A DNA stretch of 64,000 nucleotides from positions 72 through 64,071 of the forward strand of contig JBBIJQ010000007.1 of assembly GCA_037445915.1 (NCBI GenBank), written 5' to 3'. Shown here piece by piece: positions 1 to 63,449 of the stretch; position 1 is the first letter of the stretch, and the number at the start of each line of letters is the position of its first letter. The notes beneath the pieces are model-generated. The model was not told where the DNA came from and ran no database searches. It worked only from the letters and a program-made list of their open reading frames with translations. The DNA comes from Planctomycetales bacterium. GTDB lineage: Bacteria > 4484-113. Position numbers and translations under genes: made by a program.

Positions 1-2839
1 CATAACATTCCAGCGCGCCGATGTGAACCGCGCAATCCTCATTCGCGGCGTTGCCAAAGCCCGTGCCCTGCAGCGCGATGTTATCCCCGACGATTTGGAT
101 GTTGGGCGCCAGCGCGTCAAGGCGCGGCAAAACGGTGAAGTCAAAGCTGGACGTTACCTGCGCGCCGTTGATGTCCACCATAACTGCTCCGGTAACGGCA
201 TCTTCGGGGACGGTAACGGTTATGGCGTCGGCTTGCCAATCCACAACCTGCGCCTCTTCCCAATCCGAAACACCGGCAAAGTAAATCTTGTCTATGGCGG
301 GAGTGTAAACGTCGCCTGCATCGGCGATAAAGTAGCTTCCTTCAACCGTGATGCTGGTTCCCGTCTCGGCGGTGTCAATATCAACGCCGGTGATGGAGTG
401 GTTCTTCACATAGGCGGCGATGCTCCCACTGCTGGCCGTAGGCCATTCGTCTTCGGCGTAAACGCTAAGCTCGTGGTAGCCGCCGTGGAAATTGGTCGTT
501 GTCCACGAGTATCCGTAAGGGCCGTCGTTAGTGAAGCTCGCCTTCTCAACGCCGTCAATCAGCAGCTTAACCAGCGTTACGTCCACATCATCCGTGACAT
601 CGGCGGTGAAGCTAGTAATGCCGCTAACGCCTGCGCCCGCGTCCGGCGAGGTAATGTCAATAGTGCAGGGCGGCGTCTTCTTCTCAACCGCGAAGTCGTC
701 AAGCCAATATCCGGCGGCGACTCCGCTCCCGTCTGAATAAAAGAAAAACCCAATCTGGATTGACTGCCCGATGTAACTGTTGAGGCTGTATGTCTTCTGC
801 TCCCAAGACGACAGTGTTCCCGTCCCAAATCCGTCTAGATAGACAAACTCGTAGCTGCCGTCGTTCACCAGCAAATATGCCGCATCTCCGGCGCCTATCG
901 CATAGCGGTGCTTGAACTTCAAGCGCGCCGCCTCCAATCCGTTAAGGTTAATCACCGGCGAGTAGAGCCGGTCAAACTCGCTGTTGCCGTAGTTATTGCC
1001 CCCTGCCCCGCCAAAACGGTAACTGTGGGTGCCGCTTGCGCCCAAGTTATTCACCCTGTGCCAGTAGCCGGAGCCCATTTCATTCAGGTTCCACCAGCCA
1101 GGGTCGCCGCTTTCAAAGTCAATAAAGTAGTTAGGGGCCTGCACATCATTGTCGACCGTTAAAGTTATCGTGTGGCTGCCGGTCATATGCTGGTTATCCA
1201 GCGCTACCGCCTTAAGCTTGTGGCTTCCGTTGATGTATTTGGAAGTATCCCAGGGGCAAGTGTATGGCGCGGTTGTGTCAGTGGCGACAATCACGTCATT
1301 CACGATGAAAAAGACCTTCTGAATGCTGCCGTCGCTGTCGCTTGCGTCAGCGTTGATTGCGACAGTCCCGCTTACAGTGTCAAGGTCGCTTGGCGCTGTG
1401 ATTGAGACGGCGGGCGGCGTTCCAAAGCCGTCATTGACGACAAAGTCCAGAGCGGCGTTTATGTCCAGGCGCTTAATTTCCGCGTTTTGCCACTGGGCAT
1501 CGTCTAGCGGGGCGCCCGTACCTTCCAGCGCTGCGCGAAGCTCGTCCACTGTCAGCGCAGGGTCGTAGCTCAGGAGCAGCGCGGCTGCGCCCGCGACGTG
1601 CGGCGTCGCCATGCTGGTGCCGCTCCAGTTCATATAAGCAGAAGTAGAGACATAACCGCAAGATTTGATGTTAACGCCCGGCGCAGCGATGTCCACCCAC
1701 TGGCCGTAGTTGCTAAAACTTGCGCGGGAATCCGAGGGGCTTTCGGCTGTTGCTCCGACGCAGCAGTTAACCTCATAGTAGCCGGGGTAATAAGGCTTAG
1801 TTGTGTTGGCGTTGGCTGCAGCAACTGCCAGGAAAATGCCTTGGCCGTAAGCATCCTCGCAGGCTGCCTTAGTGGCAGAGCTGGGAGCTGCCCCTCCCAA
1901 GCTCATGCTGATTACGTCAGAGCCGATTTCGGCGCCCAGAACTATCGCTGCCGCAATACGGCTGGAAGGGGCGCCGCCGGTGGGGCCAAACACCCGTATT
2001 TGCACCATGGAAGTTGTGTGCACCACCCCAACCACGCCTTTTGAGTTGTCGCCAACCGCGCCGATGGTGCCAGAGCAGTGGGAGCCGTGGCCATGCCCAT
2101 CCTGCGGCACGTTATCATTCTCAAAGAGGTCAAAAATCTCATCCGGCCAGTGGTCCGGCGGATGCAGGTAGTTGCCGGCCAAATCCTCGTGGTCTGGATA
2201 GCTGCTTACGGTGTTGCCTGAGTAGCGTACGCCTGTATCAATGACGCAGACCAAGACATTGCTGTCGCCCCGCTCCGTGTCCCAAGCGCCGGCCGCGTTG
2301 ATTTTCACCATTCCCCAGAGGTTCGCGGGATAGTCCGGGTCATTGGGAACGTACTGCAAGCTATAGAGGGAATCGTATTCAATGTATTCAACCGCATCGG
2401 CGTAGTCGGCCTTGATGCGCTGCATGATTTCCTTCGCGCAAGCACCGTCCTTCGTCTGGTAGCCGGCGAAGTTCACGCCGCGCACGTAAGCTTCCTTGTC
2501 AAGCTTTACGCCGTATGCATCGCGTATTTCCCGCGCCAGCGCGGCAAGTCCGGTGTTCTGGTAGAGACGCGAGTTGGGATTGTAGTCAGCGCTGCCGGAG
2601 GATGCGCGCGCGGCCTTCGCCCCAGGCTTGAAGCCGACAACGAATCGGTCGGGATAGAAGTCCACGCCCGGGGCGAAATTATCAGCGTCGAAGCCGTAGC
2701 CGCCCGCCTGCGAAACCTGTGAGGCGGGGCTGCCTGATGATGGCAGGGCGGGGGCGATGCGGCTGCGGCCGGACTTGCCGCAGGCGGAGAGGAGTAGCAG
2801 GACTGCTAATACCGCAATGAGCGCGCGCCGGTAATGCAT
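1..2839 (-). CDS. S8 family (subtilisin-like) serine peptidase, predicted lipoprotein; the C-terminal end runs off the window edge, so it has no in-window stop and is absent from the ORF track
   Basis: Reverse-strand translation gives MHYRR..LLLSACGK (signal peptide + lipobox). The catalytic triad motifs VCVIDTGV (~2215), QDGHGHGSHCSGTIG (~2060) and GTSMATPHVAGAAALLLS (~1590) are all in one open frame. No reported minus-strand ORF shares this frame. Confidence 0.8.
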   Translation of the reverse strand, partial: MHYRRALIAVLAVLLLLSACGKSGRSRIAPALPSSGSPASQVSQAGGYGFDADNFAPGVDFYPDRFVVGFKPGAKAARASSGSADYNPNSRLYQNTGLAALAREIRDAYGVKLDKEAYVRGVNFAGYQTKDGACAKEIMQRIKADYADAVEYIEYDSLYSLQYVPNDPDYPANLWGMVKINAAGAWDTERGDSNVLVCVIDTGVRYSGNTVSSYPDHEDLAGNYLHPPDHWPDEIFDLFENDNVPQDGHGHGSHCSGTIGAVGDNSKGVVGVVHTTSMVQIRVFGPTGGAPSSRIAAAIVLGAEIGSDVISMSLGGAAPSSATKAACEDAYGQGIFLAVAAANANTTKPYYPGYYEVNCCVGATAESPSDSRASFSNYGQWVDIAAPGVNIKSCGYVSTSAYMNWSGTSMATPHVAGAAALLLSYDPALTVDELRAALEGTGAPLDDAQWQNAEIKRLDINAALDFVVNDGFGTPPAVSITAPSDLDTVSGTVAINADASDSDGSIQKVFFIVNDVIVATDTTAPYTCPWDTSKYINGSHKLKAVALDNQHMTGSHTITLTVDNDVQAPNYFIDFESGDPGWWNLNEMGSGYWHRVNNLGASGTHSYRFGGAGGNNYGNSEFDRLYSPVINLNGLEAARLKFKHRYAIGAGDAAYLLVNDGSYEFVYLDGFGTGTLSSWEQKTYSLNSYIGQSIQIGFFFYSDGSGVAAGYWLDDFAVEKKTPPCTIDITSPDAGAGVSGITSFTADVTDDVDVTLVKLLIDGVEKASFTNDGPYGYSWTTTNFHGGYHELSVYAEDEWPTASSGSIAAYVKNHSITGVDIDTAETGTSITVEGSYFIADAGDVYTPAIDKIYFAGVSDWEEAQVVDWQADAITVTVPEDAVTGAVMVDINGAQVTSSFDFTVLPRLDALAPNIQIVGDNIALQGTGFGNAANEDCAVHIGALECY

Positions 2840-3053
2840 ATGTAAATTCACCTTGTTAGCGTAATAGCCGAAATGAGCCGAAACACCTTGTATTATACCG
2901 AAAATATACTATCAGCAGCGCGACCGTCCCGGCTGGGCGTAAGCTCTATCTATCCGCCGCTTGGTTTGTGATTTAAGGCTGGCCGCAATATCAAAGCCTT
3001 GCTTGTGAGCCCGGTGCACTCTGTGAGAATTGTTTCGTGAATGAAGTGTTCGC

Positions 3054-17804: not shown

Positions 17805-18571
17805 ACGAAGGGATGCGCGAAGTGGCTGGGCTGATGGCGCGTGCGCAGCGCGTGACAGTGCTAACAGGCGCGGGCATCTCCGCCGAAAGCGGCATCCCGA
17901 CCTTTCGCGGCAGCGGCGGCTTTTGGAAAGACGAAGAGGAGATGATGCGCCTTTCCACGCTGGAGGGATTCCTGCGCGACCCGCAGGCGGTCTGGGAGTT
18001 TTACGACCGCCGTCGCGTTCAGGCGAACTCGGTGCAGCCAAACCCCGGCCATGAATCGCTGGCTGATTACGAAACCCGCGCGCTGAGGCGCAGCGCCAGC
18101 TTCGCCTTGATAACGCAAAACGTGGACGGCCTGCATGCCCGCGCGGGAAGCCGCAACATTCTTGAGCTTCACGGAAGCATCTGGCATGCGCGCTGCTTCA
18201 AGGGATGCTCGCCCGATTTGTTCATGCTACCCGAGGAGCCGCTTCCGTCATACCCGCCCGAATGCCCGAAATGCGGTGCGATGCTGCGCCCGCACATCGT
18301 GTGGTTCGGCGAGAAGCTCCATCCCGCGATACTTGAAGAAAGCTTCGCGCTTGCCGAGGAATCGGACTTGATGCTCGTCGCGGGCACGTCAGGCCAGGTT
18401 TACCCCGCGGCGGGCCTCCCATACGTGGTGAAGCGCGCTGGCGGGACTGTAGTGCAAGTAAACATGGAGCCGACCGAGCTTAGCCACGCAGCCGATTACA
18501 ACATCTACGGCAAGAGCGGCGAGATACTTCCTGAGTTGATGACGTTCGTCCAACTTGGTGACAAACTATGA
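17801..18571 (+). CDS. cobB: NAD-dependent protein deacylase, Sir2 family (CobB-like, Zn-ribbon)
   Basis: VLTGAGISAESGIPTFRG, QNVDGLH, and CxxC...CPKCG zinc module. Overlaps purN by 4 nt. Confidence 0.9.
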   Translation: MNEGMREVAGLMARAQRVTVLTGAGISAESGIPTFRGSGGFWKDEEEMMRLSTLEGFLRDPQAVWEFYDRRRVQANSVQPNPGHESLADYETRALRRSASFALITQNVDGLHARAGSRNILELHGSIWHARCFKGCSPDLFMLPEEPLPSYPPECPKCGAMLRPHIVWFGEKLHPAILEESFALAEESDLMLVAGTSGQVYPAAGLPYVVKRAGGTVVQVNMEPTELSHAADYNIYGKSGEILPELMTFVQLGDKL

Positions 18572-20043
18572 AGACGCGCCTGTTGCTGCTGATACTGATT
18601 CCTTTAACAATGTGCCTGCTCGCAGTGAGCTGCATGAAGCCCAAGCCCAAGCAGCTGGATGCCGCCCCACAAGCCCCTCCGCCTTCGCTGGAAGCAAAAA
18701 CGCCCTTGGAACCTAAGGAGTATTCTCCAGTAGCGTTCCTTGACGAGTCACTCTACGCAGTTGGCAGGGAGCTCTTCTACAGCCCCGACGGGCGGATGAT
18801 TAAGCAAGCCGCGTACTTCGGCGGGACCGGCAAAGTCTTGACGCTGGTTACCGACTACGATCTTGTGCGAGCAGCAGATTGCGCCGGCCCGCTTTACCTC
18901 GTGAATGCCGAAGACGCAGCCGATGTTATGCAGTTAAAAGGCTCGGCTCAAGTTCTTGGCTTCATCAAGGAGCCGGTTGGCGGCTTCTATTATCATGCGG
19001 TGAAAGAGGGCGAACGCGACGCTCCTCCCGAAGAAGGGGGCGCGGGCCAAGTTGTGCAGCACAGCCCCATAATCAATACCAAGGTTATCCCGCACCACCT
19101 GACTACAGAGGGCCAGGATACCGCGCTGGAAATGGAGAACAAGTTCATTGACGGCGTGCTTCCGGATGGGAAGCTGTTACTGGCGCACGTGGTTGACCTC
19201 ACGCAGTTTGACGGGGGATACATCCGGGGGTTGGCGACGAAGTGGACCGTCCATGACCCTGCGGTGAAGAAGGATGTTCATTCCTTTGATTTCTCCCCCA
19301 TGCTCGCGCCCGACCTCTCAGCTGCGCTTGAAGTTGTGCGGTATTACGACTCCGCCAATTACGCCGACTCCTACTTCGCTTTATACCAGGGCGCGGTAGG
19401 CGCCCCTTCCGCGCAGCTAAAGCTCGTGTATTCCTGCCCTTACTTCATTACGCTGACATCCGAGCGCTGGAGGCCTCCCGCCGAGTTCATTGACGCAAAG
19501 CGTGTTCTCGTAGGGCGATTCGCGCCTGCCGATTCCACTTCGGGCGAAGCTAACGCAGTCCCGAACTCGCGTGGCTCGCTGACGCTGGAGAGCTTTGACG
19601 TGACGACGCACCGCCTGCGCACGCTGGTCAAAGACGTGCCGCCGTATATACGCGTGTTCACGCAAATGGGCGCGCCGGTTTTCTTCTATGTGTCCTACCA
19701 GATTCCCGAACTCATCAGGCGGCACAGCATTTGGGCTGCCGCCGTTGACGGGACGAAGGCGAGGCGGCTGGTGGAAAACACCGCTGCGCGGCGCGTGCGC
19801 ATAATGGACGTGGACTTCAAGAGCGGAAAGCTGCTTGTGGTTGAAGATTACGAAACAAGCTCGGGAAGCTACTCGCTGCTGCGCGAATTCAAGTTGAGCG
19901 CCGCCGCCCCGCCGCCTGAACCGCCGTCGGGAAAAGAAGAGCCACCAGAAGGAACACCTGCCCCGCAGCAAGGAGCGCAGCCGCCGGAAAGCGAAGGCGA
20001 GCAAGGCCCTCCGCCGATAAGCCTGCCGGGAACGAAGACTTAA
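18568..20043 (+). CDS. hypothetical lipoprotein
   Basis: Signal peptide with LAVSC lipobox and no recognisable domains. ATGA overlap with cobB. Confidence 0.5.
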   Translation: MKTRLLLLILIPLTMCLLAVSCMKPKPKQLDAAPQAPPPSLEAKTPLEPKEYSPVAFLDESLYAVGRELFYSPDGRMIKQAAYFGGTGKVLTLVTDYDLVRAADCAGPLYLVNAEDAADVMQLKGSAQVLGFIKEPVGGFYYHAVKEGERDAPPEEGGAGQVVQHSPIINTKVIPHHLTTEGQDTALEMENKFIDGVLPDGKLLLAHVVDLTQFDGGYIRGLATKWTVHDPAVKKDVHSFDFSPMLAPDLSAALEVVRYYDSANYADSYFALYQGAVGAPSAQLKLVYSCPYFITLTSERWRPPAEFIDAKRVLVGRFAPADSTSGEANAVPNSRGSLTLESFDVTTHRLRTLVKDVPPYIRVFTQMGAPVFFYVSYQIPELIRRHSIWAAAVDGTKARRLVENTAARRVRIMDVDFKSGKLLVVEDYETSSGSYSLLREFKLSAAAPPPEPPSGKEEPPEGTPAPQQGAQPPESEGEQGPPPISLPGTKT

Positions 20044-20849
20044 AGCCGCTTCATAGCCCGCCAGGCGCTGAAGCTGCGCCAACGCGCTTTGATGTAGGTG
20101 GAGTAATCCATTCCCGACTCGCGGCGCAGCGCATCGTCAATTTCCGTGAGGTCGTCAAGCGACGCCATCCGCTCAAAGTCCAGCTTCTCCTGCCAATCCT
20201 CTATGTCCCGCTGAAGCTGCCCCACGATAAGCTCAAGATCCCGCTGCGAAGTCTCCGACTGCGCAAGCGCATCCTGCGCGCGGTAAAAGTTAAGTAAGTC
20301 GCGGATGGTCCAGAAGTAACGCGACTGCTGGCGGAAGTAATAGACGCGCGCGGGCGACCTTGCGATTTCCGCCTGCAAATTTAGTAGCTCCGTCTTCGCC
20401 CTAAACGCGCCGCGCGCAATTTCCTCAAACTTTGATAGCCGCGCGGCGAGCGTCTCTTCCGCCCGCAGCGTCTCAGGAAAGAACGCGGCTGCGGGAATGC
20501 CCTTCAGCATGTCCTGCGCCTGCCGACTCTTCTCCGCAAGCTCGCGCAGGTCTTTTTCAATGCTCCTGCGCTCCTCCTCCGTGCGGTATTGTTCAATAAT
20601 AATGCGCGCACTTTCAATCCAGGAGTCGGCAGCCTTGGAAAGCGAGTTGCGCGTTTGGGCAAGCGCGCTTTGCTGCGCGGATTTGTCCCTCTGGAAGCGC
20701 GCGTAGTCGTCGGTGGCGGCAAAGAAGGCGAATGCTATCACAACCGCCCAAGGGAGCAGGAGCCATCTTCGGTCAAGCAAGCCCATAGTATTAAGAAGGT
20801 TTCTGATTCTACCGCGAAGCGCGCGTAAACGGCGCAAATTCGCTAGCAA
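20040..20849 (-). CDS. hypothetical N-terminally membrane-anchored coiled-coil protein
   Basis: One TM helix (LLLPWAVVIAFAFFAA), then long heptad-rich charged segments. Convergent 4-nt overlap with the upstream lipoprotein gene. Confidence 0.45.
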   Translation of the reverse strand: MLANLRRLRALRGRIRNLLNTMGLLDRRWLLLPWAVVIAFAFFAATDDYARFQRDKSAQQSALAQTRNSLSKAADSWIESARIIIEQYRTEEERRSIEKDLRELAEKSRQAQDMLKGIPAAAFFPETLRAEETLAARLSKFEEIARGAFRAKTELLNLQAEIARSPARVYYFRQQSRYFWTIRDLLNFYRAQDALAQSETSQRDLELIVGQLQRDIEDWQEKLDFERMASLDDLTEIDDALRRESGMDYSTYIKARWRSFSAWRAMKRL

Positions 20850-24267: not shown

Positions 24268-24753
24268 TCACCTCTTCCTGTCCTTGTTGTAATACCAAAG
24301 GAATTTGTAATCCTCCGGCTTTCTCACAATGCCCGGCGAGACCGGATTATTAGCGATGTATTTCATCTCCTCATAAAGCTCATATTCGTTGCGGATTAGC
24401 CGCGTGTGCGATCGGGTTTCCCAAAGCGGCCCTGACCTTCCCCTGCTTCTGTTTACGCGAAAGGAACTGAGGCCTTTCACATGCTGCATCGCCCTAGAAA
24501 GCGTGACCTCTTTCCCGGTCACAACAGGCTTAATAATGAGATGAACATGATTGGACATAACTACCAGCGCGAACAAGTCGTATAGTTCGCCTCTGCCGTC
24601 CATCACTACGTTGAAGACAATTTCTTTCTTGGCATCCGTGAAATGGCTTATCCCTTCGCGCAAGTTGAAAGTAGCGAAATAGGTGCCGCCTTTTTCCTCC
24701 CATCGCGGAATATGCTTGCGGGCGGGTTTTGTAACTGCTTTGGGTTTGTCCAT
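24268..24753 (-). CDS. REP-associated tyrosine transposase (RAYT; IS200/IS605 TnpA-like Y1 HUH)
   Basis: 161 aa. HUH motif (SNHVHLII) and the C-terminal catalytic Tyr region (YIANNPV), typical of RAYT/IS200 transposases. Confidence 0.85.
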   Translation of the reverse strand: MDKPKAVTKPARKHIPRWEEKGGTYFATFNLREGISHFTDAKKEIVFNVVMDGRGELYDLFALVVMSNHVHLIIKPVVTGKEVTLSRAMQHVKGLSSFRVNRSRGRSGPLWETRSHTRLIRNEYELYEEMKYIANNPVSPGIVRKPEDYKFLWYYNKDRKR

Positions 24754-27399: not shown

Positions 27400-28428
27400 G
27401 TGTTGAGAACGAAAAAGGGATTCACCCTAATTGAGCTGCTGGTGGTCATCGTGATCATCGGCATCCTTGTGGCAATCGCCCTGCCAAACTTCATCAAAAT
27501 CAAGATCAAGGCGCGCGAAGCGGAGGTCAAGCAGAATCTTCATGCTATTCAGCTTGCCGTAGAACGCTACGCGACTGACAACGAGGGGCGCTACCCGTAT
27601 TTCCTCTACGGTGGCGACACCTATGTTAACGTCGGGACAAGTAAGCATGCTTGCGGCGACTGGATTGAACCGGGCGTTAACGGGAGGCACCCGTTTGACC
27701 TGTTCAACAAGACTTTCACCAATTACGACCATACTTACAGTGGCCGCGGCCTGTCCCGCAGCAACTTGGGCACGGCAGGCTTTGAGTTCGGCGACACGCT
27801 GGCGGTTGACGGCTACCTTACTCACTATCCAAACAACCCGTTCCTGACCAAGAAGGCGCAGAACATCTACGGCCTCGGCTCAAAGGACTGGGGCGGCTGG
27901 ATTCCCTGGAGGGCCTGCGGCGGCGTCAGCGGCCAGAATATGTTCAACCTCGGCTGGTCCGGCGAAGGTCCCAGCCTGATGGCTTACGACATTGACGGCG
28001 AGCCGAATACCTCAATCAAGCTTGAGTTCCCAGGCAACTTCTACTACCACCCGCGCTTCGTTGACGGGGCTAGCAACGCCGACCACTTCACTGCCCAGTG
28101 TACCTCACAGGCGATCACGCCAAACCATGTGACAGGCATAGGCGCAAGCGCCCGCCCCGGATTGGTTTGGAGCATGGATGTTGAGGGTTACGATCTCCTC
28201 GCTTACGGCGACCCTACAAGCGAAGGCTTTGACATTGACTACTCAATCAGCGGCGGCAGCCAGAAGATTAACTGTAAGCGCACAGGTTACCTGAACAACG
28301 TTCCGGAACCCAACCCTTACAACGCCGCCAACGGCTATGCCCCCCGGACAGTTCCGGACGGCAAGCCCGATTACTACATTATCCACCTGAGCAGCGCGCA
28401 GGACGCGAAGGCTCAGGGCGTCCTCTAA
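27400..28428 (+). CDS. prepilin-type N-terminal cleavage/methylation domain protein (large pseudopilin-like, 342 aa)
   Basis: MLRTKKG|FTLIELLVVIVIIGILVAIALPNF: class III signal with Gly-1, Phe+1, Glu+5. The C-terminal ~300 aa are unassigned. Confidence 0.8.
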   Translation: MLRTKKGFTLIELLVVIVIIGILVAIALPNFIKIKIKAREAEVKQNLHAIQLAVERYATDNEGRYPYFLYGGDTYVNVGTSKHACGDWIEPGVNGRHPFDLFNKTFTNYDHTYSGRGLSRSNLGTAGFEFGDTLAVDGYLTHYPNNPFLTKKAQNIYGLGSKDWGGWIPWRACGGVSGQNMFNLGWSGEGPSLMAYDIDGEPNTSIKLEFPGNFYYHPRFVDGASNADHFTAQCTSQAITPNHVTGIGASARPGLVWSMDVEGYDLLAYGDPTSEGFDIDYSISGGSQKINCKRTGYLNNVPEPNPYNAANGYAPRTVPDGKPDYYIIHLSSAQDAKAQGVL

Positions 28429-28439
28429 GTCTTTAGGAG

Positions 28440-29477
28440 GTGAAACCAATGATCTCTCGTAAGTCAGGCTTTACCCTAATTGAGTTGCTGGTGGTCATCG
28501 TAATCATCGGCATCCTCGTCGCCATCGCACTCCCGAACTTTATCAAAGTCCGCGAGAAGGCGAAGGAAGCAGAGGTAAAGCAAAATTTGCATTCGATCCA
28601 ACTGGCAGTTGAGCGCTATTCAACCGATAACGCGAACGGCAACTACCCCAACTATATCCTAGGTGGCGACTGGACCGACAGCTGGACTATCAATCAGCAG
28701 TACTTCTTCTTCGCTGGCCTTGACCAGGTTGCTTACCCGGCCTGGAAGACCGGCGGCCCGCAGTATTGCACGGACGGGAACGGAGACTACCTGATTATGG
28801 AAGGCTATATGCCGACCTACCCAAAGAACCCGTTCGTCAAGCAGGGCAACCTCGTCGCCCGCCGCCTTATCCACGATATGATGTGGCACAGCAACCGCGT
28901 TGGCACAACCATGCCCCGCCTCGTCGGCGGCGATGACAACACCAAGATGGTTGAAGTCTTCGGCCCGCCCCCCGCGTGGATTTTCGCCATGGTTGGGATG
29001 GGTGGCGACATGCGCGTCATCCCTCCGTACCCCGACCTTCAGAACGCGGACGGCCTCTGGCAGAACCGCGGCCTTAAAGACGTGACTGCCGCCGAGTACA
29101 GGCAGCCCGGCAGCCGCCTGCTGGTTGGCAACTTCTCCTACTTCGCCCGCTTGAACCAGCAGTGCTGGATACTGTGGAACGGTTCGCACGACGTCGCAGG
29201 CTATACCCTCGCCGCTTATGGCACGCTCAAGAACCTTGGCCAGGACGTTTACGACCGCAACGGTGAGTACTTCCCTCGTATGCGAATCGCAACCTGCGCC
29301 CTTGCCAACTACTTCGGCCTCAATGGCTTGTTGCCTTGCCAGACCGATTCGTCTCCCAACACGCTCAATCAGTCGCGCGGCGGCCCTGATACCCGTCCCG
29401 ACGGCGTGATCATCGTGTTAGACTCTGGCGTGGACAAGAAGTCCATGAATCCTACGGAAGGGGCGACTGGCTACTAA
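28440..29477 (+). CDS. prepilin-type N-terminal cleavage/methylation domain protein (large pseudopilin-like, 345 aa), paralog of the upstream gene
   Basis: MKPMISRKSG|FTLIELLVVIVIIGILVAIALPNFIKVREKAKEAEVKQNLHSIQLAVERY; near-identical N-terminal ~55 aa to the first copy, then divergent. GGAGG RBS. Confidence 0.8.
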   Translation: MKPMISRKSGFTLIELLVVIVIIGILVAIALPNFIKVREKAKEAEVKQNLHSIQLAVERYSTDNANGNYPNYILGGDWTDSWTINQQYFFFAGLDQVAYPAWKTGGPQYCTDGNGDYLIMEGYMPTYPKNPFVKQGNLVARRLIHDMMWHSNRVGTTMPRLVGGDDNTKMVEVFGPPPAWIFAMVGMGGDMRVIPPYPDLQNADGLWQNRGLKDVTAAEYRQPGSRLLVGNFSYFARLNQQCWILWNGSHDVAGYTLAAYGTLKNLGQDVYDRNGEYFPRMRIATCALANYFGLNGLLPCQTDSSPNTLNQSRGGPDTRPDGVIIVLDSGVDKKSMNPTEGATGY

Positions 29478-32727: not shown

Positions 32728-32736
32728 TGTTATAAT
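32728..32736 (+). promoter_or_regulatory. extended -10 promoter TGTTATAAT ~15 nt upstream of tRNA-His
   Basis: Perfect TGnTATAAT in the uvrD/tRNA divergent region. Confidence 0.45.
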
Positions 32737-32750
32737 CAAAGTTCGCCAAC

Positions 32751-32824
32751 GGGGAGGTAGCTCAGTTGGTTAGAGCGCTAGTCTGTGGAACTAGAGGCCG
32801 AGGGTTCGACCCCCTCCCTCCCTA
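32751..32824 (+). tRNA. tRNA-His (anticodon GTG)
   Basis: Hand-folded cloverleaf: acceptor GGGGAGG/CCTCCCT (G1-U72), U8, D-arm GCTC-AGTTGGTTA-GAGC, anticodon stem CTAGT/ACTAG with loop CTGTGGA (U33, GTG at 34-36), T-arm GAGGG-TTCGACC-CCCTC, discriminator A73. No encoded CCA. C at position -1. Confidence 0.8.
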
Positions 32825-32843
32825 CTTTCAGTTGGTGCGTGAA

Positions 32844-34208
32844 ATGGCTGACCCTAGGATAAAGCCGAGAGTGCTCAGGGGGTTCCAGGACCTCCTGCCG
32901 ACGCATGCGCGGATGCGGCAACAAATCACAGGCACCCTTCGCGCCGCATTTGAGTCCTTCGGCTTCGCCCCCTTGGAAACACCCGCGCTGGAGACCGAAG
33001 AAGTCCTGCTCGCCGACACCGGCGTTGACGCCAACAAGCAAACTTACCGCTTCGTGGACTTGGACAACGAGCCGGTGGGCTTGCGCTACGACTTCACAGT
33101 GTCGCTGGCGCGCGCCGTGGCGATGAACCAAAACCAGCTTCAATTCCCCTTCAAGCGTTACCAGTTCGGCCCCGTCTGGCGTTTTGACAAGCCCAAGCGC
33201 GGCCGTTTCCGCGAATTTATGCAGATGGACATAGACATTGTCGGCGCGCAGCCTTACGAGCCCGAAGTTGAGCTTGTAGCGGCGACCGCCGAGGGTTTCC
33301 GCAGGCTGGGCATTAGCGGCTACTACTTTCGCGTGAACGACCGCCGTTGGCTTGGCGCGGAACTGGCGCGCTTAGGCGTCCCGTCTGAAAAAGAGAAAGA
33401 TGTTTTCCGCGTGCTGGACAAGCTGCAAAAGCAGGGCGAAGGCAAAGTGCGCGCCGAATTGACCGGCAAGCTGCTGCTGCAAGACTTTGGAAGCGCGCTG
33501 GAGTTCCAGCGCATGCAGGAAATCGCGATATCCGATGAAGCAGCTGAAGGCCTGCTTGCGCTGTTGAAGCAGCCCGACGCCCTGCGCGAATACCTTGAGC
33601 CGTTTCTCGCCCGGGTGCGCGATGAAGGCGTGCCGGACGAATGCGTCGTCCCCGACCCGTCGCTTACTCGCGGCCTTGATTACTACACAGGCTTTGTCTG
33701 CGAGATTCAGCTAAAGGGCGCTGAAGCGCTGGGCAGCATCGGCGGCGGCGGGCGCTACGACAACCTCGTTGGGAGATACACCAGCTCAAGCCTCACCGGC
33801 GTTGGCCTGTCGGTCGGAGTGGACAGGCTCGCAGAATCGCTGGCGTCCATCGGCGCGCTCCCCGATTCAGGCGGGCAGTCATCGGCGCGCGTGTTCGTCG
33901 CCGTGTTTGACGATGCGCTGGTGGCGAAAGCCGCAGGCATCGCGCGGATGCTTCGCGGCGCGGGCATACCCACAGAGCTTTGGTTGAAGAGCGGTAACGC
34001 CAACGGCCGCACGCTTTCAAAGCAGTTCAAATATGCAGACAGTGTTGGCATCCCGCTTGCGGTTATCGCTGGCGAAGACGAGCTGGCGAAAGACCCGCCG
34101 GTGGTGCAGTTGAAGGACTTGCGAACCGAATTTGGCGAAACCGGCAAGCAACGCGAAGTGCCGATGGCATCGCTCGTTGATGAAATAACAAGGCTGCTTG
34201 GCGCATAG
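32844..34208 (+). CDS. hisS: histidine--tRNA ligase (class II, with C-terminal anticodon-binding domain)
   Basis: Motif 1/2 region (RGFQDLLP; FKRYQFGPVWRFDKPKRGRFREFMQMDIDIVG), motif 3 GGGRYDNLV and a C-terminal alpha/beta anticodon-binding domain. The ORF-track start 32766 lies inside the tRNA; ATG at 32844 (MADPRIKPR) is the likely start. Confidence 0.85.
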   Translation: MADPRIKPRVLRGFQDLLPTHARMRQQITGTLRAAFESFGFAPLETPALETEEVLLADTGVDANKQTYRFVDLDNEPVGLRYDFTVSLARAVAMNQNQLQFPFKRYQFGPVWRFDKPKRGRFREFMQMDIDIVGAQPYEPEVELVAATAEGFRRLGISGYYFRVNDRRWLGAELARLGVPSEKEKDVFRVLDKLQKQGEGKVRAELTGKLLLQDFGSALEFQRMQEIAISDEAAEGLLALLKQPDALREYLEPFLARVRDEGVPDECVVPDPSLTRGLDYYTGFVCEIQLKGAEALGSIGGGGRYDNLVGRYTSSSLTGVGLSVGVDRLAESLASIGALPDSGGQSSARVFVAVFDDALVAKAAGIARMLRGAGIPTELWLKSGNANGRTLSKQFKYADSVGIPLAVIAGEDELAKDPPVVQLKDLRTEFGETGKQREVPMASLVDEITRLLGA

Positions 34209-34211
34209 ATA

Positions 34212-35165
34212 ATGAAGGTTCTCGTTACAGGCGGCGCAGGCTTTATCGGCGGCCATCTCTCCGCCGCGCTTGTTGCCGCCGGCCACAGCGTTACCGTCGT
34301 TGACAACCTTTCCAGCGGCCGCCGAGAGTTCGTCCCCTGCAGCGCGACACTTGTTGAAGCGGACGTTACTTCGCCTGAATTCGGCGTCATCCTATCGTCA
34401 TTTGCGCCTGAGGCCGTTTACCACCTTGCAGCGCAGATAAGCGTATCGCTGTCCGCGCGCGACCCAGGCTTTGATGCGCAGGAAAACATCTGCGGGGGCT
34501 TGAACGTGTTGTCCGCAGCTGCCGACGCAGGCGTGCGCAAGTTCATCATCGCCAGCAGCGGCGCCGTCTACGGCACGTGCCCTGAGATTCCATTCCGCGA
34601 AACCTCGCCCAAATGCCCCGTTTCGCCCTACGGCATCGCCAAGTATGCGCTTGAGCATTACTGCCGCTACTTCGCGCAGTTTCGCGGCCTACACTCGCTC
34701 GCGCTGCGGCTGGGTAATGTTTACGGCCCACGCCAGAATCCCCTTGGCGAAGCAGGCGTAGTCGCCATATTCCTCCAACGCATGCTTGAAGGCAAGCCGG
34801 TGGAGATTCACGGCACCGGCGAGCAGGCGAAAGATTACGTGTATGTTGGCGACATCGTTGATGCGATGGTGAAAGTGCTTGGCATTAAGCTGCCACGCGA
34901 TGCTGAAGCTGATGCGCGCGCATTCAATGTGGGGACGGGCGAAGCCTGGCCGGTCAACGACATCTTCCAGCGATTAAGCAAGCTCACCGGCTATTCGCAG
35001 CCGCCGCAATCCGGCCCGCTGCGTGAAGGCGACCAAATGATAGCGAAGCTAGATGCGCGCAAGGCGCAGGAGGCCCTTGGCTGGTCGCCGAAAATCACGT
35101 GGGACGAAGGCTTGCACCTGACCGCGCAGTGGTTCAAAGATAACTTGAGCCTGTTTGCGCGTTAG
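34212..35165 (+). CDS. NAD-dependent epimerase/dehydratase (UDP-glucose 4-epimerase family)
   Basis: VLVTGGAGFIGGHL, catalytic YxxxK (YGIAKYALEHY) and LRLGNVYGPRQ. Confidence 0.8.
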   Translation: MKVLVTGGAGFIGGHLSAALVAAGHSVTVVDNLSSGRREFVPCSATLVEADVTSPEFGVILSSFAPEAVYHLAAQISVSLSARDPGFDAQENICGGLNVLSAAADAGVRKFIIASSGAVYGTCPEIPFRETSPKCPVSPYGIAKYALEHYCRYFAQFRGLHSLALRLGNVYGPRQNPLGEAGVVAIFLQRMLEGKPVEIHGTGEQAKDYVYVGDIVDAMVKVLGIKLPRDAEADARAFNVGTGEAWPVNDIFQRLSKLTGYSQPPQSGPLREGDQMIAKLDARKAQEALGWSPKITWDEGLHLTAQWFKDNLSLFAR

Positions 35166-48904: not shown

Positions 48905-50176
48905 TCAAAGGTAGCGGCGGAAGATGCTGTGCTGGCGAATAAGCCTACCATATGCGCGCAGCGCTTCGGGCGAAATCCGGTTGCCGGATGAAGCGAACAT
49001 CTCAGCCGCAAGCTGCGACGCAATAGCGGGCGAATGCCCGTCTTCCTTTAGCCAGGACGCAAGCTGCTTGGGCGCATCGTCCCCGCCAAGCCCCAGCGCA
49101 TGCGCAAGCCCAAAACGCAGCGCGGAATAGCTATGTTTGCCGTGCCGCCATAACTCGGCTTGAGCCCGCACGCGCTCCAGCGTTGACGGGAAGGCGATTA
49201 GCAGGATGTCAATATCCTTGCCCAGCGGAAACATCTCCTTAAGGAAAAATAACAAGATGCAAAACGCGGCGAGCATGATTAGCTGCCCCCACCACGAAAA
49301 GAAGAGCAGCGCAACCGCGCCTACTCCGCTTTCGGCGTAGCCGTGAATGGACTCTAAGAACCATATACCGCTTCCCTGGCGTTGGGAAAGCAAATTGTAG
49401 GCGAATACGGCGTTGTCAGTCGCGCCGATATCGCGGTTGGTGAAAAGCTCGGATGCGCTGACTTCAACCCAGGTTCCTTTCCCTACGCTGGCGGTGACGA
49501 GGAACGGCCGGCTGGTTCCTTTGAAGAAGTAAACTTCCTGCGCGCCCTTAGCGAGTTCGGAGTTTGCCTCAAGCGGCTTAATGTCATACGGCGAAAGCCC
49601 TCCGCCTGTGAGCTCGCGCACTCCCGCAAAGGCAGCGCCCGGCAATCCATCAGCGCTTATGTGAATGTATCCTTTGCAGTCAATCTCCCACTCAATCTCA
49701 TAGGCCCGTGCGCTTGCGGGAAGCTTTGGGAGCGGCTCCTGCGGCGCCGAAGGTTTCTTTGCTTCGACGGCGGCTGGAGGCAGGGCGCCCTTCGCTTCCG
49801 CGCCCTGCGGAGATGCGCTGAAGTTCTTGCCGGAAACCGGCGGAAGGTAGATGACGGTATGCCCCCGCTCGCGAACTGCCTTCCAGTAATCCCTTAGCTC
49901 ATGCGCGCTGGCGATGGGCTTGAACGGCGCGTCATCGCCAACGACGAGAGTCGCCCCCGGCGGGAGCAGCTCAAGGGCCTGGCCGAAAAAGTCCACTTCC
50001 ACGCCTTTGGTGCGTAGCAGCAGAAACAGCGCGTTCATCCCGAGCGGCGTCTTCGCGGTTGCGGAAAGCGGGTTCTCCGGCAAATACTCCGCCGTCCGCA
50101 CCGCGAACGCGCCAAGCACTGCCACTATTAGCAGTAACGCCGCAATCAACAGCCCGTGTTTGCGACTACTGCCCAT
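48905..50176 (-). CDS. membrane-anchored hypothetical protein (DUF4350-like)
   Basis: N-terminal TM, large extracytoplasmic domain, second TM cluster near the C-terminus. Adjacent to and overlapping a DUF4129 gene, as in DUF4350/DUF4129 pairs. Confidence 0.4.
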   Translation of the reverse strand: MGSSRKHGLLIAALLLIVAVLGAFAVRTAEYLPENPLSATAKTPLGMNALFLLLRTKGVEVDFFGQALELLPPGATLVVGDDAPFKPIASAHELRDYWKAVRERGHTVIYLPPVSGKNFSASPQGAEAKGALPPAAVEAKKPSAPQEPLPKLPASARAYEIEWEIDCKGYIHISADGLPGAAFAGVRELTGGGLSPYDIKPLEANSELAKGAQEVYFFKGTSRPFLVTASVGKGTWVEVSASELFTNRDIGATDNAVFAYNLLSQRQGSGIWFLESIHGYAESGVGAVALLFFSWWGQLIMLAAFCILLFFLKEMFPLGKDIDILLIAFPSTLERVRAQAELWRHGKHSYSALRFGLAHALGLGGDDAPKQLASWLKEDGHSPAIASQLAAEMFASSGNRISPEALRAYGRLIRQHSIFRRYL

Positions 50177-50960
50177 CTTCTACCTCTTCGTTTACTCGGC
50201 ACAGCTTCATCGTAATTCGCCGCGCGTTTTCGTAGTCTTCCTTGCCTGCAGCCGCCCCGCCGTAGAAGGTCACATCAAAGCTGTGCTTGAGCTGGCGGAA
50301 GTCATCCTGCGGCGCGCCCTCAATCAGCGCGAGCTTGGCCGATAGAAGATATGTCGGCGTTGTCTTTGCAGCATCGCCGAAAAGCGAGAGTATAGCCGCG
50401 CTGAAAAGCAACCTTATTGCGCGCTGGACGTCTCCGTCGGCGTATGCAGCTGAGGCGGCCGCCAACAGCTTCGCCGGAGTTGTGTTATCGCCTTGTCCCT
50501 TGCCTGCGCGCGCTATTCTGCCTTCAAAGAAGCTCTCGCTGATGATGCGCCAGGTCATTACTAACAGCGCTGCGCCTGCTATCGCGACGATGGCGTAAGG
50601 GAACCAGGGCGCGCTTTCAGCGATACGCTCCCCGCTCTGTGAGATATTGCTCCAGAACTTACGCCAGGCATCCCTTATCCACTGCATCCATCTTGGCAGT
50701 GGCCTTGCTTGTGTCTCCCCCGCAAGCCGAAAGTCCGGACGGTCCAGGATTCGCCGAATCTCTTGGCGGATGCTCTCCGCGCTCGCATCGGCATTCACGC
50801 TTTCCGCCCTTAGCGCCGGGGATGCGGCGGCGCTAGGTGGAGTAGTGGCGTTTCCTTCCTTCTCCTGCGCGTATGATGCGGGCGCGCAAAGCAGCAGCGT
50901 TATGCACGCTGCTGTTAGCCCAAGTGCGGTCAGCATCTTTCGCGCATTCATCATTTTCAA
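50166..50960 (-). CDS. DUF4129 domain protein
   Basis: Signal/TM, then the C-terminal pattern AYADGDVQRAIRLLFSAAILSLFGDAAKTTPTYLLSAK...FDVTFYGGAAAGKEDYENA typical of DUF4129. Confidence 0.55.
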   Translation of the reverse strand: MKMMNARKMLTALGLTAACITLLLCAPASYAQEKEGNATTPPSAAASPALRAESVNADASAESIRQEIRRILDRPDFRLAGETQARPLPRWMQWIRDAWRKFWSNISQSGERIAESAPWFPYAIVAIAGAALLVMTWRIISESFFEGRIARAGKGQGDNTTPAKLLAAASAAYADGDVQRAIRLLFSAAILSLFGDAAKTTPTYLLSAKLALIEGAPQDDFRQLKHSFDVTFYGGAAAGKEDYENARRITMKLCRVNEEVEDGQ

Positions 50961-56317: not shown

Positions 56318-57193
56318 CTAGGCGGCGTTATTTTCACCTGCTTTAGCCGAAACAAATATCTTGCCGAGCCGCACTTCGGCAAGAAGTAGCATAGCCCTGG
56401 CAAGCTGCGCATACGCAGCCTTTGGGTCACCCATCCTCTCAATGTCGTGCGTATGCATCCTGCATGAAAGCTTGGCGCGGCGTGGAGCGCCCGCAAACTC
56501 AACAAATACGGTGTTCAAACCTTCCAGCGGCGCCTGGTCGCTCCCTACAAGGATAAACTTGCTGCCTACGGAAAATGGGCATGCGCCGAGCTCTATGTTG
56601 TGTTCTACAAACTCCAAGTCTTTAGGCGTAAGTTCCTTGAACTGCTGCGGCACAATTTCCGTGCGGTCCTGCACAAGCTGGGTAGCCGGGTCCTGGAAAA
56701 ACGCATACGTGAGCTTGATGCCCTCAACTGCGTTCAGCGTGCGCGACGTGCGCCCCACAAGGAACCAGAAAAGGGCGTCAAACGCCTGCTCCAGCGCTGG
56801 AAAGCCTAGCCCAGCGAGGTAATGGCCGTAGAAGTCCTTTTTCTCCAGCTTCGCCGGATAGCTGTCCAAGCCAGCGTCGCGCATAATCGCGCGGTAAACG
56901 CGCACCATCGCCACTTCCTGTGGCAGTATTACATACCTCGCGAGCTGGTTTTCCGCCAAGCAGATTATCTCTTCGCTGTGCGTAACGGCAGCGTCAACCC
57001 CTTCTAGGTTGCGCACGATAGGATAAGGCGCGTAGTAGAGGTTGTCCTGGCGCGCAGACTTCGCCGCCAATAGGACGCGGCGCATGAAGTCCTCCAGGTT
57101 GAGACCGGCCCAGTCAACCCTCAGGCCGGGCAGTAGGAGCCCAAGATTCGTGTTATAAGCCTTCATAAGGCGAACCCTGATTATACCGCACAC
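56318..57193 (-). CDS. hypothetical protein in the yicC/yloC position upstream of gmk, but not recognisably YicC
   Basis: 291 aa with no YicC_N/DUF1732 motifs that I can recognise. Co-directional and nearly abutting gmk. Confidence 0.35.
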   Translation of the reverse strand: MCGIIRVRLMKAYNTNLGLLLPGLRVDWAGLNLEDFMRRVLLAAKSARQDNLYYAPYPIVRNLEGVDAAVTHSEEIICLAENQLARYVILPQEVAMVRVYRAIMRDAGLDSYPAKLEKKDFYGHYLAGLGFPALEQAFDALFWFLVGRTSRTLNAVEGIKLTYAFFQDPATQLVQDRTEIVPQQFKELTPKDLEFVEHNIELGACPFSVGSKFILVGSDQAPLEGLNTVFVEFAGAPRRAKLSCRMHTHDIERMGDPKAAYAQLARAMLLLAEVRLGKIFVSAKAGENNAA

Positions 57194-61780: not shown

Positions 61781-63449
61781 ATGCGTAATTTGATTTTCGC
61801 TTTGGCAGCGTTGTTTGTGCTGGCGTTTGGCGTTTCCGCCTCCGCCGCAATGTTTAAGGACGTGCCCACCGACCACTGGGCGTACGAAGCCATTGACTAC
61901 CTGCAGCAGCAGGGCCTCGTTGAGGGCTTCCCCGATGGCGAGTTCAAGGGCAACCGCACCTTCACCCGCTACGAAATGGCGATGGTCGTCGCCCGCATGT
62001 ACTCAAAGCTCGAGGACCTGGCTGGTGGAATGGATTCCGCTTCTGGCCGTCTTGACGAGCTTGAGGCGCAGCTTGACCGCCTAGGCAACGAGTTCAAGGA
62101 CGAACTGGCTGAGATTAACGGCCGCCTGGGCAAGCTTGAGGGCCAGGTCTCCACGAACACTGACGACATCAACAAGTTGAAGGCTTTGATCAAGGACAGT
62201 AACATCAGCGGTTACTACCGCGCCCGCACTGGCGCTTTTGCGAAGACTGGCGCGATTGATTGGAGCAACGACTTCGGCCACGAGCAGGTTCTTGGCCTGC
62301 ACATGGGCTTCCAGCCCGAAGAGCACATCAAGTTCGAGTTCACCCTGACCTCAGCCGAGGCCCAGGGCACCGTTGGAACGGGCTTCGTGCCTGGCCTCAA
62401 CAACGAGACTTTTGCTGTCCGCCCGGGCAACCCGCCCTTCGGCAACCGCTCACAGTCCAGCAGCTTCGTTCTTGATGAGGCGAAGGCCACCATCGGCCTT
62501 ACCCCTTACACCAATGCTCTTGGCGACACGCCGACCCTGACAATTGGCCGCCAGTATTTCAGCGAGGGCGAATTCGGCCTTGCTGGCGACAACGGCTACC
62601 GCTCTGACTTCGGCTACCGCTTTGACACCACCTGGCGTGAGGGCCACTGGGCAGCATACGTAGCTGCGTACCGCGTTGAAGGCGTCTTGGGCTTCAACCC
62701 CTACTTCAACCCGGCTTCCTTGAGCAACGGCTCAAGCCTCGTCAACCTGATTGATAACGACGACATGCTGCTCGCCGGTATCAAGTACTTCGGGCGCGAG
62801 GGCAAGTCATGCCCGCAACCTGGAAGTATTCGTTGACGGCACGCCTAACGGCTACGGTGCTGAGATGTATGTCAATGTTTCTGGTAACGCTGAAATTCCC
62901 TGGTGGGACAATGAGTGGTTCAACGGCATCCGCGCCGAGTGGAACTACACCCCCAATAACGTTACCGACATTAACGCCGACGACTTCGGTCTGGCGAACA
63001 TGTCAACCATCGTTGAGCTTGATGTTTACAACGACGGTCGCACCAAGGTTAGCCTTGCTGGCGCGAGCATCGCCCAGATGGAAGGCCTACCTGTCTACGC
63101 CAACGTGGACAACGACCCGTTTAGTGAGTGGGACTTCACCGTTAACGGCGTCGCTGACGCCTTCAACATGAGCCGCGAGGGCAAGAACTACTTCCCGGCG
63201 GACTTTGAGGGTATCGGCGTCACTGCTGAGCATACCTTCCGTAACAAACTTTACGGCAAGGTCACGTGGTACACCGGCGAGCGCATCAATGCGTTCTTTG
63301 ACAGCCGTCCGGGATTGCTGAAGTTCAACTTCCGCTATCCGTTTGAGAAGCATGCTTCTCTCGGCTTGGATGTCATCACCGCCGGCGAGTACAACGATCT
63401 CGAGGACGCGATTACTCTCGTCCGCGGCGAGTTCCTGCTCCACTTCTAA
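61781..63449 (+). CDS. S-layer homology (SLH) domain protein, interrupted by an apparent +1 frameshift around 62760-62830
   Basis: Signal peptide. SLH motif FKDVPTDHWAYEAIDYLQQQGLVEGFPDGEFKGNRTFTRYEMAMVVARM, then a coiled-coil segment and a beta-rich porin-like domain. Two overlapping track ORFs (61781..62836 and 62751..63449) in different frames; AAGGAG RBS. Confidence 0.6.

Follow-up and report, generated by a model that had tools for sequence, protein, structure and literature searches.

Can a bacterium outside the Alphaproteobacteria charge its histidine tRNA without the additional guanosine at position -1 (G-1)? This question is raised by a tRNA-His gene that lies directly upstream of hisS, the gene of histidyl-tRNA synthetase (HisRS), in a stretch of 64,000 nt (hereafter the window) from contig JBBIJQ010000007.1 of a Planctomycetales bacterium (assembly GCA_037445915.1). 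Few tRNA identity marks are as strongly conserved across all life as G-1 on tRNA-His. A G-1-less tRNA-His/HisRS system is said to have been described in Alphaproteobacteria by Ardell & Andersson (2006) and Wang et al. (2007). An earlier note on the window, made from the sequence alone, had proposed that its tRNA-His is of this rare type and possibly forms a co-evolved pair with the neighbouring HisRS. Based on the analysis presented here, and by analogy with the alphaproteobacterial system, the apparently co-transcribed tRNA-His/hisS pair probably works without G-1 as an identity nucleotide.

The alphaproteobacterial system belongs to a clade designated RCS or RRCH, i.e. the Rhizobiales, Rhodobacterales, Caulobacterales and most SAR11 (Yuan et al. 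2011, PMC3064791). As stated in 2015, the RCS alphaproteobacteria 'remain the only exceptions' (PMC4338351). The loss of G-1 in bacteria has been treated as limited to a single alphaproteobacterial clade and as probably unique (PMC4338351, PMC3937112, PMC3245924, PMC7590224), and in a paper from 2020 it is still assigned to a subgroup of the Alphaproteobacteria (PMC7590224). The full-text literature searched, which leaves subscription journals largely outside, yielded no account of a case in other bacteria, and an earlier description is possible.

The tRNA-His gene

ARAGORN identified one tRNA only in the window, a tRNA-His(gtg) at 32751-32825, while the Rfam tRNA model RF00005 aligned end to end with 32751-32824 (72.7 bits, E 3e-16, posterior probability 1.0). 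Based on both programs and on covariation, the tRNA-His(GUG) gene spans 74 nt on the + strand (32751..32824). Position 1 falls on G32751 and U8 on T32758, the same placement that the earlier note had reached by hand and with which the sequence, ARAGORN and Rfam agree. C32750 stands at -1, a G1·U72 wobble (G32751/T32823) closes the acceptor stem (GGGGAGG/CCTCCCT) and the discriminator is A73 (A32824). These three assignments had also been proposed earlier, and they hold in ARAGORN, in Rfam and in the covariation of 14 tRNAs. CCA is not encoded in the gene, the trailer after A73 being CTTT. The D-loop has 9 nt (AGUUGGUUA) with U20a, which is also seen in the tRNAs of two canonical loci (L019 and L021) and is hence unspecific.

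A rival explanation would be an annotation artefact: with the acceptor register shifted by one, the tRNA would be canonical after all, or the gene would be a pseudo-tRNA. The end calls of ARAGORN do waver, with 75 nt instead of 74 in the window and a T at -1 included in the related locus L039. The single-sequence minimum free energy fold does not reproduce the anticodon arm (z = 0.69) and is uninformative for a tRNA; therefore, the covariance model and covariation were used to fix the register. To this end, 14 G-1-less tRNA-His genes (the window and related loci) were aligned and scored for the standard cloverleaf pairs. Standard pairs fill 99.7% of the cells, a value that a one-column shift of the 3' partners lowers to 49-53%, and 11 of the 21 cloverleaf pairs show changes on both sides. 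The G·U at 1:72 and A73 are present in 14/14 genes, with compensatory changes at 2:71, 3:70, 5:68 and 6:67. Because the G·U is invariant while these four pairs covary, the 1:72 wobble is conserved for its own sake and is no alignment artefact. The earlier note had itself raised the case of a G-1 opposite C73 in a register shifted by one; neither register gives a G at -1 or a C at 73. Together with the end-to-end Rfam alignment at a posterior probability of 1.0, the slide control and the conservation of the gene with compensatory changes in divergent relatives, this makes a register error or pseudo-tRNA extremely improbable, and it was rejected.

The linked histidyl-tRNA synthetase

The hisS gene (32844..34208, + strand) encodes a HisRS of 454 aa of a subtype named 'DKPK'. 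It matches the hisS equivalog model TIGR00442 with 332.2 bits over residues 10-429, above the cutoff of 286.75, and is 100% identical to a public protein of 454 aa (P0001) for which PF13393 and PF03129 are recorded. The gene starts 19 nt after A73 and not 90 nt downstream as previously given, a figure close to the distance from the start of the tRNA. The nearest solved structures are 6nhi and 3net, followed by eukaryotic cytosolic HisRS, with the E. coli and T. thermophilus enzymes far more distant. The motifs RGLDYYTG and GGGGRYD and also R121 and R123 of motif 2 are kept. Three sites are altered.

The first is the tRNA-binding loop of motif 2, W112-F125 (33177..33218, + strand), which in the alignments reads WRFDKPKRGRFREF compared to FRHERPQKGRYRQF in E. 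coli. In the pairwise alignment with E. coli HisRS, K116 occupies the position of R116 and K118 that of Q118. According to the structure of the T. thermophilus complex, the 3' strand beside position 73 is contacted by Gln117 of that enzyme and by the adjoining motif-2 residues (PMC4357726). The earlier claim of an altered motif-2 loop stands for the loss of Gln118. It does not stand for R116, since K, N or T is common at this position among canonical relatives, and R116 to K was rejected as a marker. Judged from the alignments, the Q118 to K exchange is the motif-2 change that is specific to the clade described below.

The second site is the pocket that takes up G-1. In the HisRS-tRNA complex of T. 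thermophilus (4RDX), the trans-subunit dipeptide G72'G73' makes room for G-1, and in C. crescentus HisRS two Asp residues stand in its place and have been proposed to block G-1 (PMC4357726). The corresponding segment of the window HisRS, as located by multiple alignment and by pairwise alignment with E. coli, is D72-L73-D74-N75-E76 (33057..33071, + strand), equivalent to D70-R71-G72-G73-R74 of T. thermophilus, so that D74-N75 aligns with G72'G73' (N74-G75 in E. coli). In the alignment, D-L-[DE] is found at this site in 25/25 proteins of the DKPK clade. Outside this clade and the group of alphaproteobacterial and GP/DP-type enzymes (see below), the site is D-x-G-x-R in 74/76 proteins, the exceptions being E. 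coli (D-R-N-G-D) and an acidic site in P0118.

The third site, again taken from the alignments, is an insertion of five residues, T428-E432 (TEFGE; 34125..34139, + strand), in the hairpin KDLR^GxQ of the anticodon-binding domain. Its flanks correspond to K397, K399 and Q404 of T. thermophilus, which in that hairpin contact G36 and U35 (PMC4357726). At the same point, alphaproteobacterial and GP/DP-type HisRS carry insertions of 16-22 residues, and canonical enzymes carry none.

The DKPK clade and its tRNAs

Among the best 120 database relatives, the loop pattern WR[FY]DK[PI]K[RKA]GR.RE/QF is limited to one group, which is monophyletic in 90/100 neighbour-joining bootstraps, with its core in 100/100. 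A profile search that covered all of 1.84 billion cluster representatives retrieved four 50%-identity clusters of the DKPK type with 614-728 bits, the next match having 460. The DKPK HisRS is a small, sharply bounded family. Relatives were collected by scanning one genome per species with the HisRS, and more distant members were traced to their contigs. A metagenome scan with the clade alignment was dominated by the generic pattern RGLDYYTG and yielded one further close relative (L055), together with extra GP/DP pairs and many canonical controls.

The closest relatives (L001-L005) have HisRS that are 63-95% identical and come from metagenome-assembled genomes (MAGs) labelled 'uncultured bacterium', 'bacterium' or 'Planctomycetales bacterium'. 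In all five, a tRNA directly upstream of hisS has c at -1 and GGGGAGG...CCTCCCT followed by A. The same acceptor end, G1·U72 with A73, is present in L055. At 56% HisRS identity (L039), the -1 base is t, again with G1·U72 and A73. At about 43% identity (L040-42 and L045/46), it is g or c, with G1·U72 and A73 retained; the stem of these tRNAs, GGGGAAG...CTTCCCT, carries a compensatory change at 6:67 and leaves the 1:72 wobble untouched. In total, G1·U72 and A73 occur in 8/8 distinct DKPK HisRS clusters with a linked tRNA-His (the window, L001, L002/L005, L003/L055, L004, L039, L040-42 and L045/46), with C, T or G at -1. Within the DKPK clade, G1·U72 and A73 are thus constant, whereas the base at -1 varies. 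The 3:70 pair is G3-C70 in the window and in every tRNA of the clade, and the core clade around the window has A at -2 and C at -1.

As a control, canonical tRNA-His genes linked to hisS were taken from the same scan (L019, L021, L025-27, L031-33 and L036, from Shapirobacteria and Anaerolineales). All nine have T-2, G-1, G1-C72 and C73, and the HisRS encoded at these loci has Gln118 together with the Gly pocket. The altered HisRS sites covary perfectly with the type of tRNA, since the 8 DKPK clusters and 5 GP/DP loci are G-1-less and the 9 canonical loci have G-1 and C73. The suggestion of a possibly co-evolved pair is supported by this pattern: the acidic residue of the pocket and the hairpin insertion covary with the tRNA, and the signature is kept down to about 43% HisRS identity.

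In the subgroup with 481-487 aa and the loop DKPKKGR (L040:11498-17982 and L045:2290-8826), the tRNA-His/hisS pair adjoins an arsenic-resistance-like cluster with ArsP, thioredoxins, DsbD, an HTH_5 regulator, two LMWPc phosphatases and an SBF/Acr3-type transporter.

Comparison with the alphaproteobacterial system

In Alphaproteobacteria, the mature tRNA-His lacks G-1 (PMC3064791, PMC4338351). C. crescentus HisRS charges this G-1-less tRNA through U72, A73 and the anticodon; the change U72C costs 91-fold and an added G-1 lowers the efficiency 5-fold (PMC3064791). For another alphaproteobacterial HisRS, G1:U72 together with A73 is the critical element (PMC7590224). True alphaproteobacterial hisS genes were taken from chromid or 'plasmid' records of Cereibacter sphaeroides, Sinorhizobium meliloti, Paracoccus versutus and Methylobacterium bullatum. 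The four enzymes have the loop [WF]RNEKPGPGRFRQF, i.e. the published Gly118 type, an acidic pocket site and an insertion of about 18-20 residues.

The window shares a number of features with this system. Its tRNA has no encoded G-1, has G1·U72 and A73, and has the 9-nt D-loop with U20a. Its HisRS lacks Gln118, is acidic in the G-1 pocket, has an insertion at the same hairpin and falls in the same broad branch that is not of the E. coli type. The differences are equally distinct. The loop is DKPKRGR with Lys118 in the window and EKPGPGR with Gly118 (numbered G118 or Gly123 in the literature) in Alphaproteobacteria, and the hairpin insertion has 5 residues compared to about 20. The tRNA has G3-C70 without an encoded CCA, whereas the alphaproteobacterial tRNA has C3-G70 (PMC3064791). 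Unlike in the alphaproteobacterial system, tRNA-His and hisS are adjacent and apparently co-transcribed in the window. Furthermore, the HisRS clade is separate (90/100), and the host is a deep uncultivated lineage and not an alphaproteobacterium.

In the trees, the alphaproteobacterial enzymes fall in a second non-canonical group with the loop DKP[GD]PGRFRE/QF (GP/DP type), apart from the DKPK clade. A placement of the window HisRS in the alphaproteobacterial HisRS clade was therefore rejected, as the alphaproteobacterial sequences group with the GP/DP loop type. A joint clade of DKPK, GP/DP and alphaproteobacterial enzymes is found in 20/100 neighbour-joining bootstraps, the deep branches being poorly resolved in these trees. 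By analogy, the window pair probably works like the alphaproteobacterial system, yet it stands outside that enzyme lineage.

The GP/DP type is also found on other contigs. A tRNA-His lies just upstream of a GP/DP-type hisS at L047:300-373, L082:688-761, L118:2329-2402, L136:9829-9901 and L137:9885-9958, on MAG or metagenome contigs that do not look alphaproteobacterial. These HisRS have the loop DKP[GD]PGRFRE/QF, their pocket is acidic, and their insertion comprises about 20 residues. The linked tRNAs have t at -1, G1·U72 and A73 in 5/5 cases, and CCA is encoded in 3/5. Their 3:70 pair is C3-G70 in L047, L082 and L137, A-U in L118 and U-A in L136. HisRS of this type also occur in MAGs labelled Zixibacteria (L010), Bacteroidetes (P0080) and Edwardsbacteria (P0088). 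A T stands at -2, before G-1, in 9/9 canonical genes and at -1 in 5/5 GP/DP genes. The U that usually comes before the RNase P site thus lies one position further on, which is what a shift of cleavage from -1 to +1 would predict. In the core clade of the window, with A-2 and C-1, this clue is not available.

The GP/DP pairs widen G-1-less histidine identity well past the lineage of the window, and they are relevant to the proposal that the alphaproteobacterial HisRS was acquired laterally. The idea of a non-canonical pair in a different lineage needs two corrections: the window HisRS is not of the alphaproteobacterial subtype and forms a separate clade, and its lineage is not the sole non-alphaproteobacterial case, given these alpha-type pairs on metagenomic contigs.

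Possible addition of G-1 after transcription

Canonical pairs such as those of E. coli and T. thermophilus share with the window the class IIa HisRS fold, the catalytic motifs, the GUG anticodon and an ordinary cloverleaf. Their tRNA has G-1, C73, C72 and U at -2, none of which is present in the window (U72), and their HisRS has Gln118, a Gly pocket and no hairpin insertion, compared to Lys, Asp and an insertion here. In eukaryotes, tRNA-His genes have A73 and no encoded G-1, and Thg1 adds G-1 post-transcriptionally (PMC3245924). The tRNA-His of Acanthamoeba castellanii and Trypanosoma brucei is, like that of the window, without G-1 and with A73, and their enzyme relies on the anticodon; these tRNAs lack G1·U72, and the enzymes are indifferent to G-1 and not built around U72 (PMC4338351).

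The window pair could follow the eukaryote-like route, with Thg1 or a Thg1-like 3'-5' polymerase adding G-1 opposite A73 after RNase P cleavage and with a HisRS that still depends on G-1. A73 without an encoded G-1 is exactly the eukaryotic configuration (PMC3245924), and the HisRS branch of the window includes the eukaryotic cytosolic enzymes among its solved relatives. In bacteria, Thg1-like proteins are found sporadically, and one of them has residual activity on an A73 substrate; they favour templated addition opposite C73 (PMC3245924). This preference speaks against the route, as do the features of the enzyme: G-1-dependent enzymes of the same branch keep the pocket Gly (DQGGE in human HisRS; the 74/76 proteins above), while the window HisRS has Asp74, as in C. 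crescentus, and has lost Gln118. G1·U72 is invariant, as in the alphaproteobacteria whose mature tRNA is without G-1. No Thg1 domain was detected in the 45 open reading frames (ORFs) of the window (E <= 1e-5), which is a weak argument as 64 kb is only part of the genome. Taken together, the Thg1 route is regarded as unlikely.

Host lineage

The earlier note had seen nothing else alphaproteobacterial in the window, and this view is supported by GyrA. The GyrA of the window is 78% identical to that of the 'Candidatus Riflebacteria bacterium RBG_13_59_9' MAG and 69% to that of 'Planctomycetales bacterium 4484_113'; below about 56% identity, the next matches are from Bacillota, at about 53%. The HisRS labelled Planctomycetaceae or Planctomycetes (P0093, P0101) are canonical. 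The host is a deep uncultivated lineage with inconsistent NCBI labels and is clearly not alphaproteobacterial. The name 4484-113, given for it in GTDB, is presumably that of a placeholder phylum. On the same contigs, HisRS and GyrA diverge in parallel, which fits vertical descent.

Putative promoter and gene neighbourhood

About 15 nt upstream of tRNA position 1, an extended -10 promoter-like element of the TGnTATAAT type, TGTTATAAT, can be read from the sequence (32728..32736, + strand). An element of this type is also present 10-20 nt 5' of the tRNA in the core-clade loci L001-L005, L039 and L055. A generic sigma-70 scan made no call at 32728-32736, because the -35 element is poor; the element presumably acts as a promoter. 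The spacer between tRNA and hisS is 19 nt (32825..32843, + strand), compared to 15-20 nt in L001-L005 and L055, and would be a short hisS 5' untranslated region after 3' processing of the tRNA. A terminator scan gave no + strand terminator-like site between the two genes. As such, tRNA-His and hisS appear to be co-transcribed from the TGnTATAAT promoter.

Since only 64 kb of the genome is seen, the linked cassette might also be an auxiliary second copy, laterally acquired or specialised, with a canonical pair elsewhere doing the housekeeping. The tRNA-hisS linkage is found in unrelated lineages too. According to Yuan et al. (PMC3064791), G-1-less and canonical pairs are mutually orthogonal; therefore, a canonical pair could be present beside such a linked cassette, and the two genes of the cassette could be transferred together. 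The surroundings of the cassette argue otherwise. It sits in a conserved housekeeping synteny (uvrD, tRNA-His, hisS, ffh, secG) that is kept down to 56% HisRS identity, and the gene order shared with L039 extends to two N_methyl genes, deoC, uvrD, tRNA-His, hisS, ffh, secG and DUF58. HisRS and GyrA identities fall in parallel, the HisRS scores above the equivalog cutoff and the tRNA scores as a normal elongator. No mobile-element genes were found beside the pair in the Pfam-annotated flanks. An auxiliary role is thus considered quite improbable.

Within this neighbourhood, an NAD-dependent epimerase/dehydratase gene (34212-35165, + strand) begins 4 nt past the hisS stop and separates hisS from ffh. 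In L039, hisS and ffh are direct neighbours, with no such gene between them. The epimerase/dehydratase gene thus appears to have been inserted in one lineage, and it probably shares a transcript with tRNA-His and hisS. Upstream, two tandem proteins of about 340 aa (27400-28428 and 28440-29477, + strand), in which only an N-terminal prepilin-type methylation motif is recognised, are kept before deoC, uvrD, tRNA-His and hisS in L039 as well.

Proposed mode of action

Returning to a pair that works without G-1, the following steps are proposed. One extended -10 promoter would drive a transcript with the tRNA as its first element. It is an established rule that a G-1:C73 pair redirects RNase P. 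Because C-1 cannot pair with A73, RNase P would cut at the ordinary +1 site here, giving a normal 7-bp acceptor stem topped by G1·U72. The 3' end would then be trimmed and, because no CCA is encoded, CCA would be added, with the processing enzymes being presumed. Finally, the HisRS would read G1·U72 and A73, aided by the remodelled hairpin that contacts the anticodon, as in the alphaproteobacterial enzymes. The canonical G-1 mechanism would not be usable by this HisRS, because the pocket Gly is replaced by Asp74 and Gln118 by Lys. The sequence features and their covariation across relatives are observed, and from them we infer, by analogy, the mature state of the tRNA and the specificity of the HisRS.

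Several points weigh against this reading. A73 without an encoded G-1 is also the configuration of eukaryotic genes, where Thg1 adds G-1. As the window is 64 kb of a genome, a Thg1-like gene, a second HisRS or a second canonical tRNA-His might lie elsewhere. The residue at 118 is Lys and not the Gly tied to G-1-independent recognition in Alphaproteobacteria. With 5 residues in the hairpin insertion instead of about 20, the argument for anticodon reading is weaker than for the alphaproteobacterial enzymes. Lastly, the suggestion of a blocked pocket depends on an alignment to the solved complex of another HisRS.

Other genes of the window

At the start of the window (1-2836, minus strand), a long ORF for a subtilisin-like (S8) protease was found, which the ORF tool did not list because it runs off the window start. 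An apparently ORF-free region of about 2.3 kb (740-3050) was rejected as an anomaly, being covered by this minus-strand gene, and the listed ORF 23-736 (+ strand) is spurious, with the S8 protease ORF on the minus strand there. No Pfam match (E <= 1e-5 or 1e-6) was obtained for ORFs of 161-491 aa at 18568-20043 (+), 20040-20849 (-), 24268-24753 (-), 50166-50960 (-), 56318-57193 (-) and 62751-63449 (+).

Implications

The same tRNA solution, G1·U72 and A73 without G-1, is thus met with a different HisRS subtype in an unrelated uncultivated lineage. In both types of enzyme, the G-1 pocket is putatively blocked, Gln118 is lost and the anticodon hairpin carries an insertion, and these three changes point to a general structural rule for doing without G-1. 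The two HisRS types form a natural experiment on which of the changes are necessary. G-1-less pairs are orthogonal to the HisRS and tRNA-His of E. coli and are used in genetic-code engineering, for which the compact new HisRS subtype is a candidate tool.

Alpha-type pairs outside the Alphaproteobacteria also bear on where the alphaproteobacterial HisRS came from. As a tentative proposal, G-1-independent histidine identity may have several roots in Bacteria, or be spread far more widely there, than the single alphaproteobacterial origin assumed in the literature would imply, with the DKPK clade being independent or early-diverged and with linked cassettes moving between phyla. If this is true, an orthogonal tRNA-His/hisS cassette would be a vehicle for this identity between phyla, and the alphaproteobacterial system may have been derived from it.

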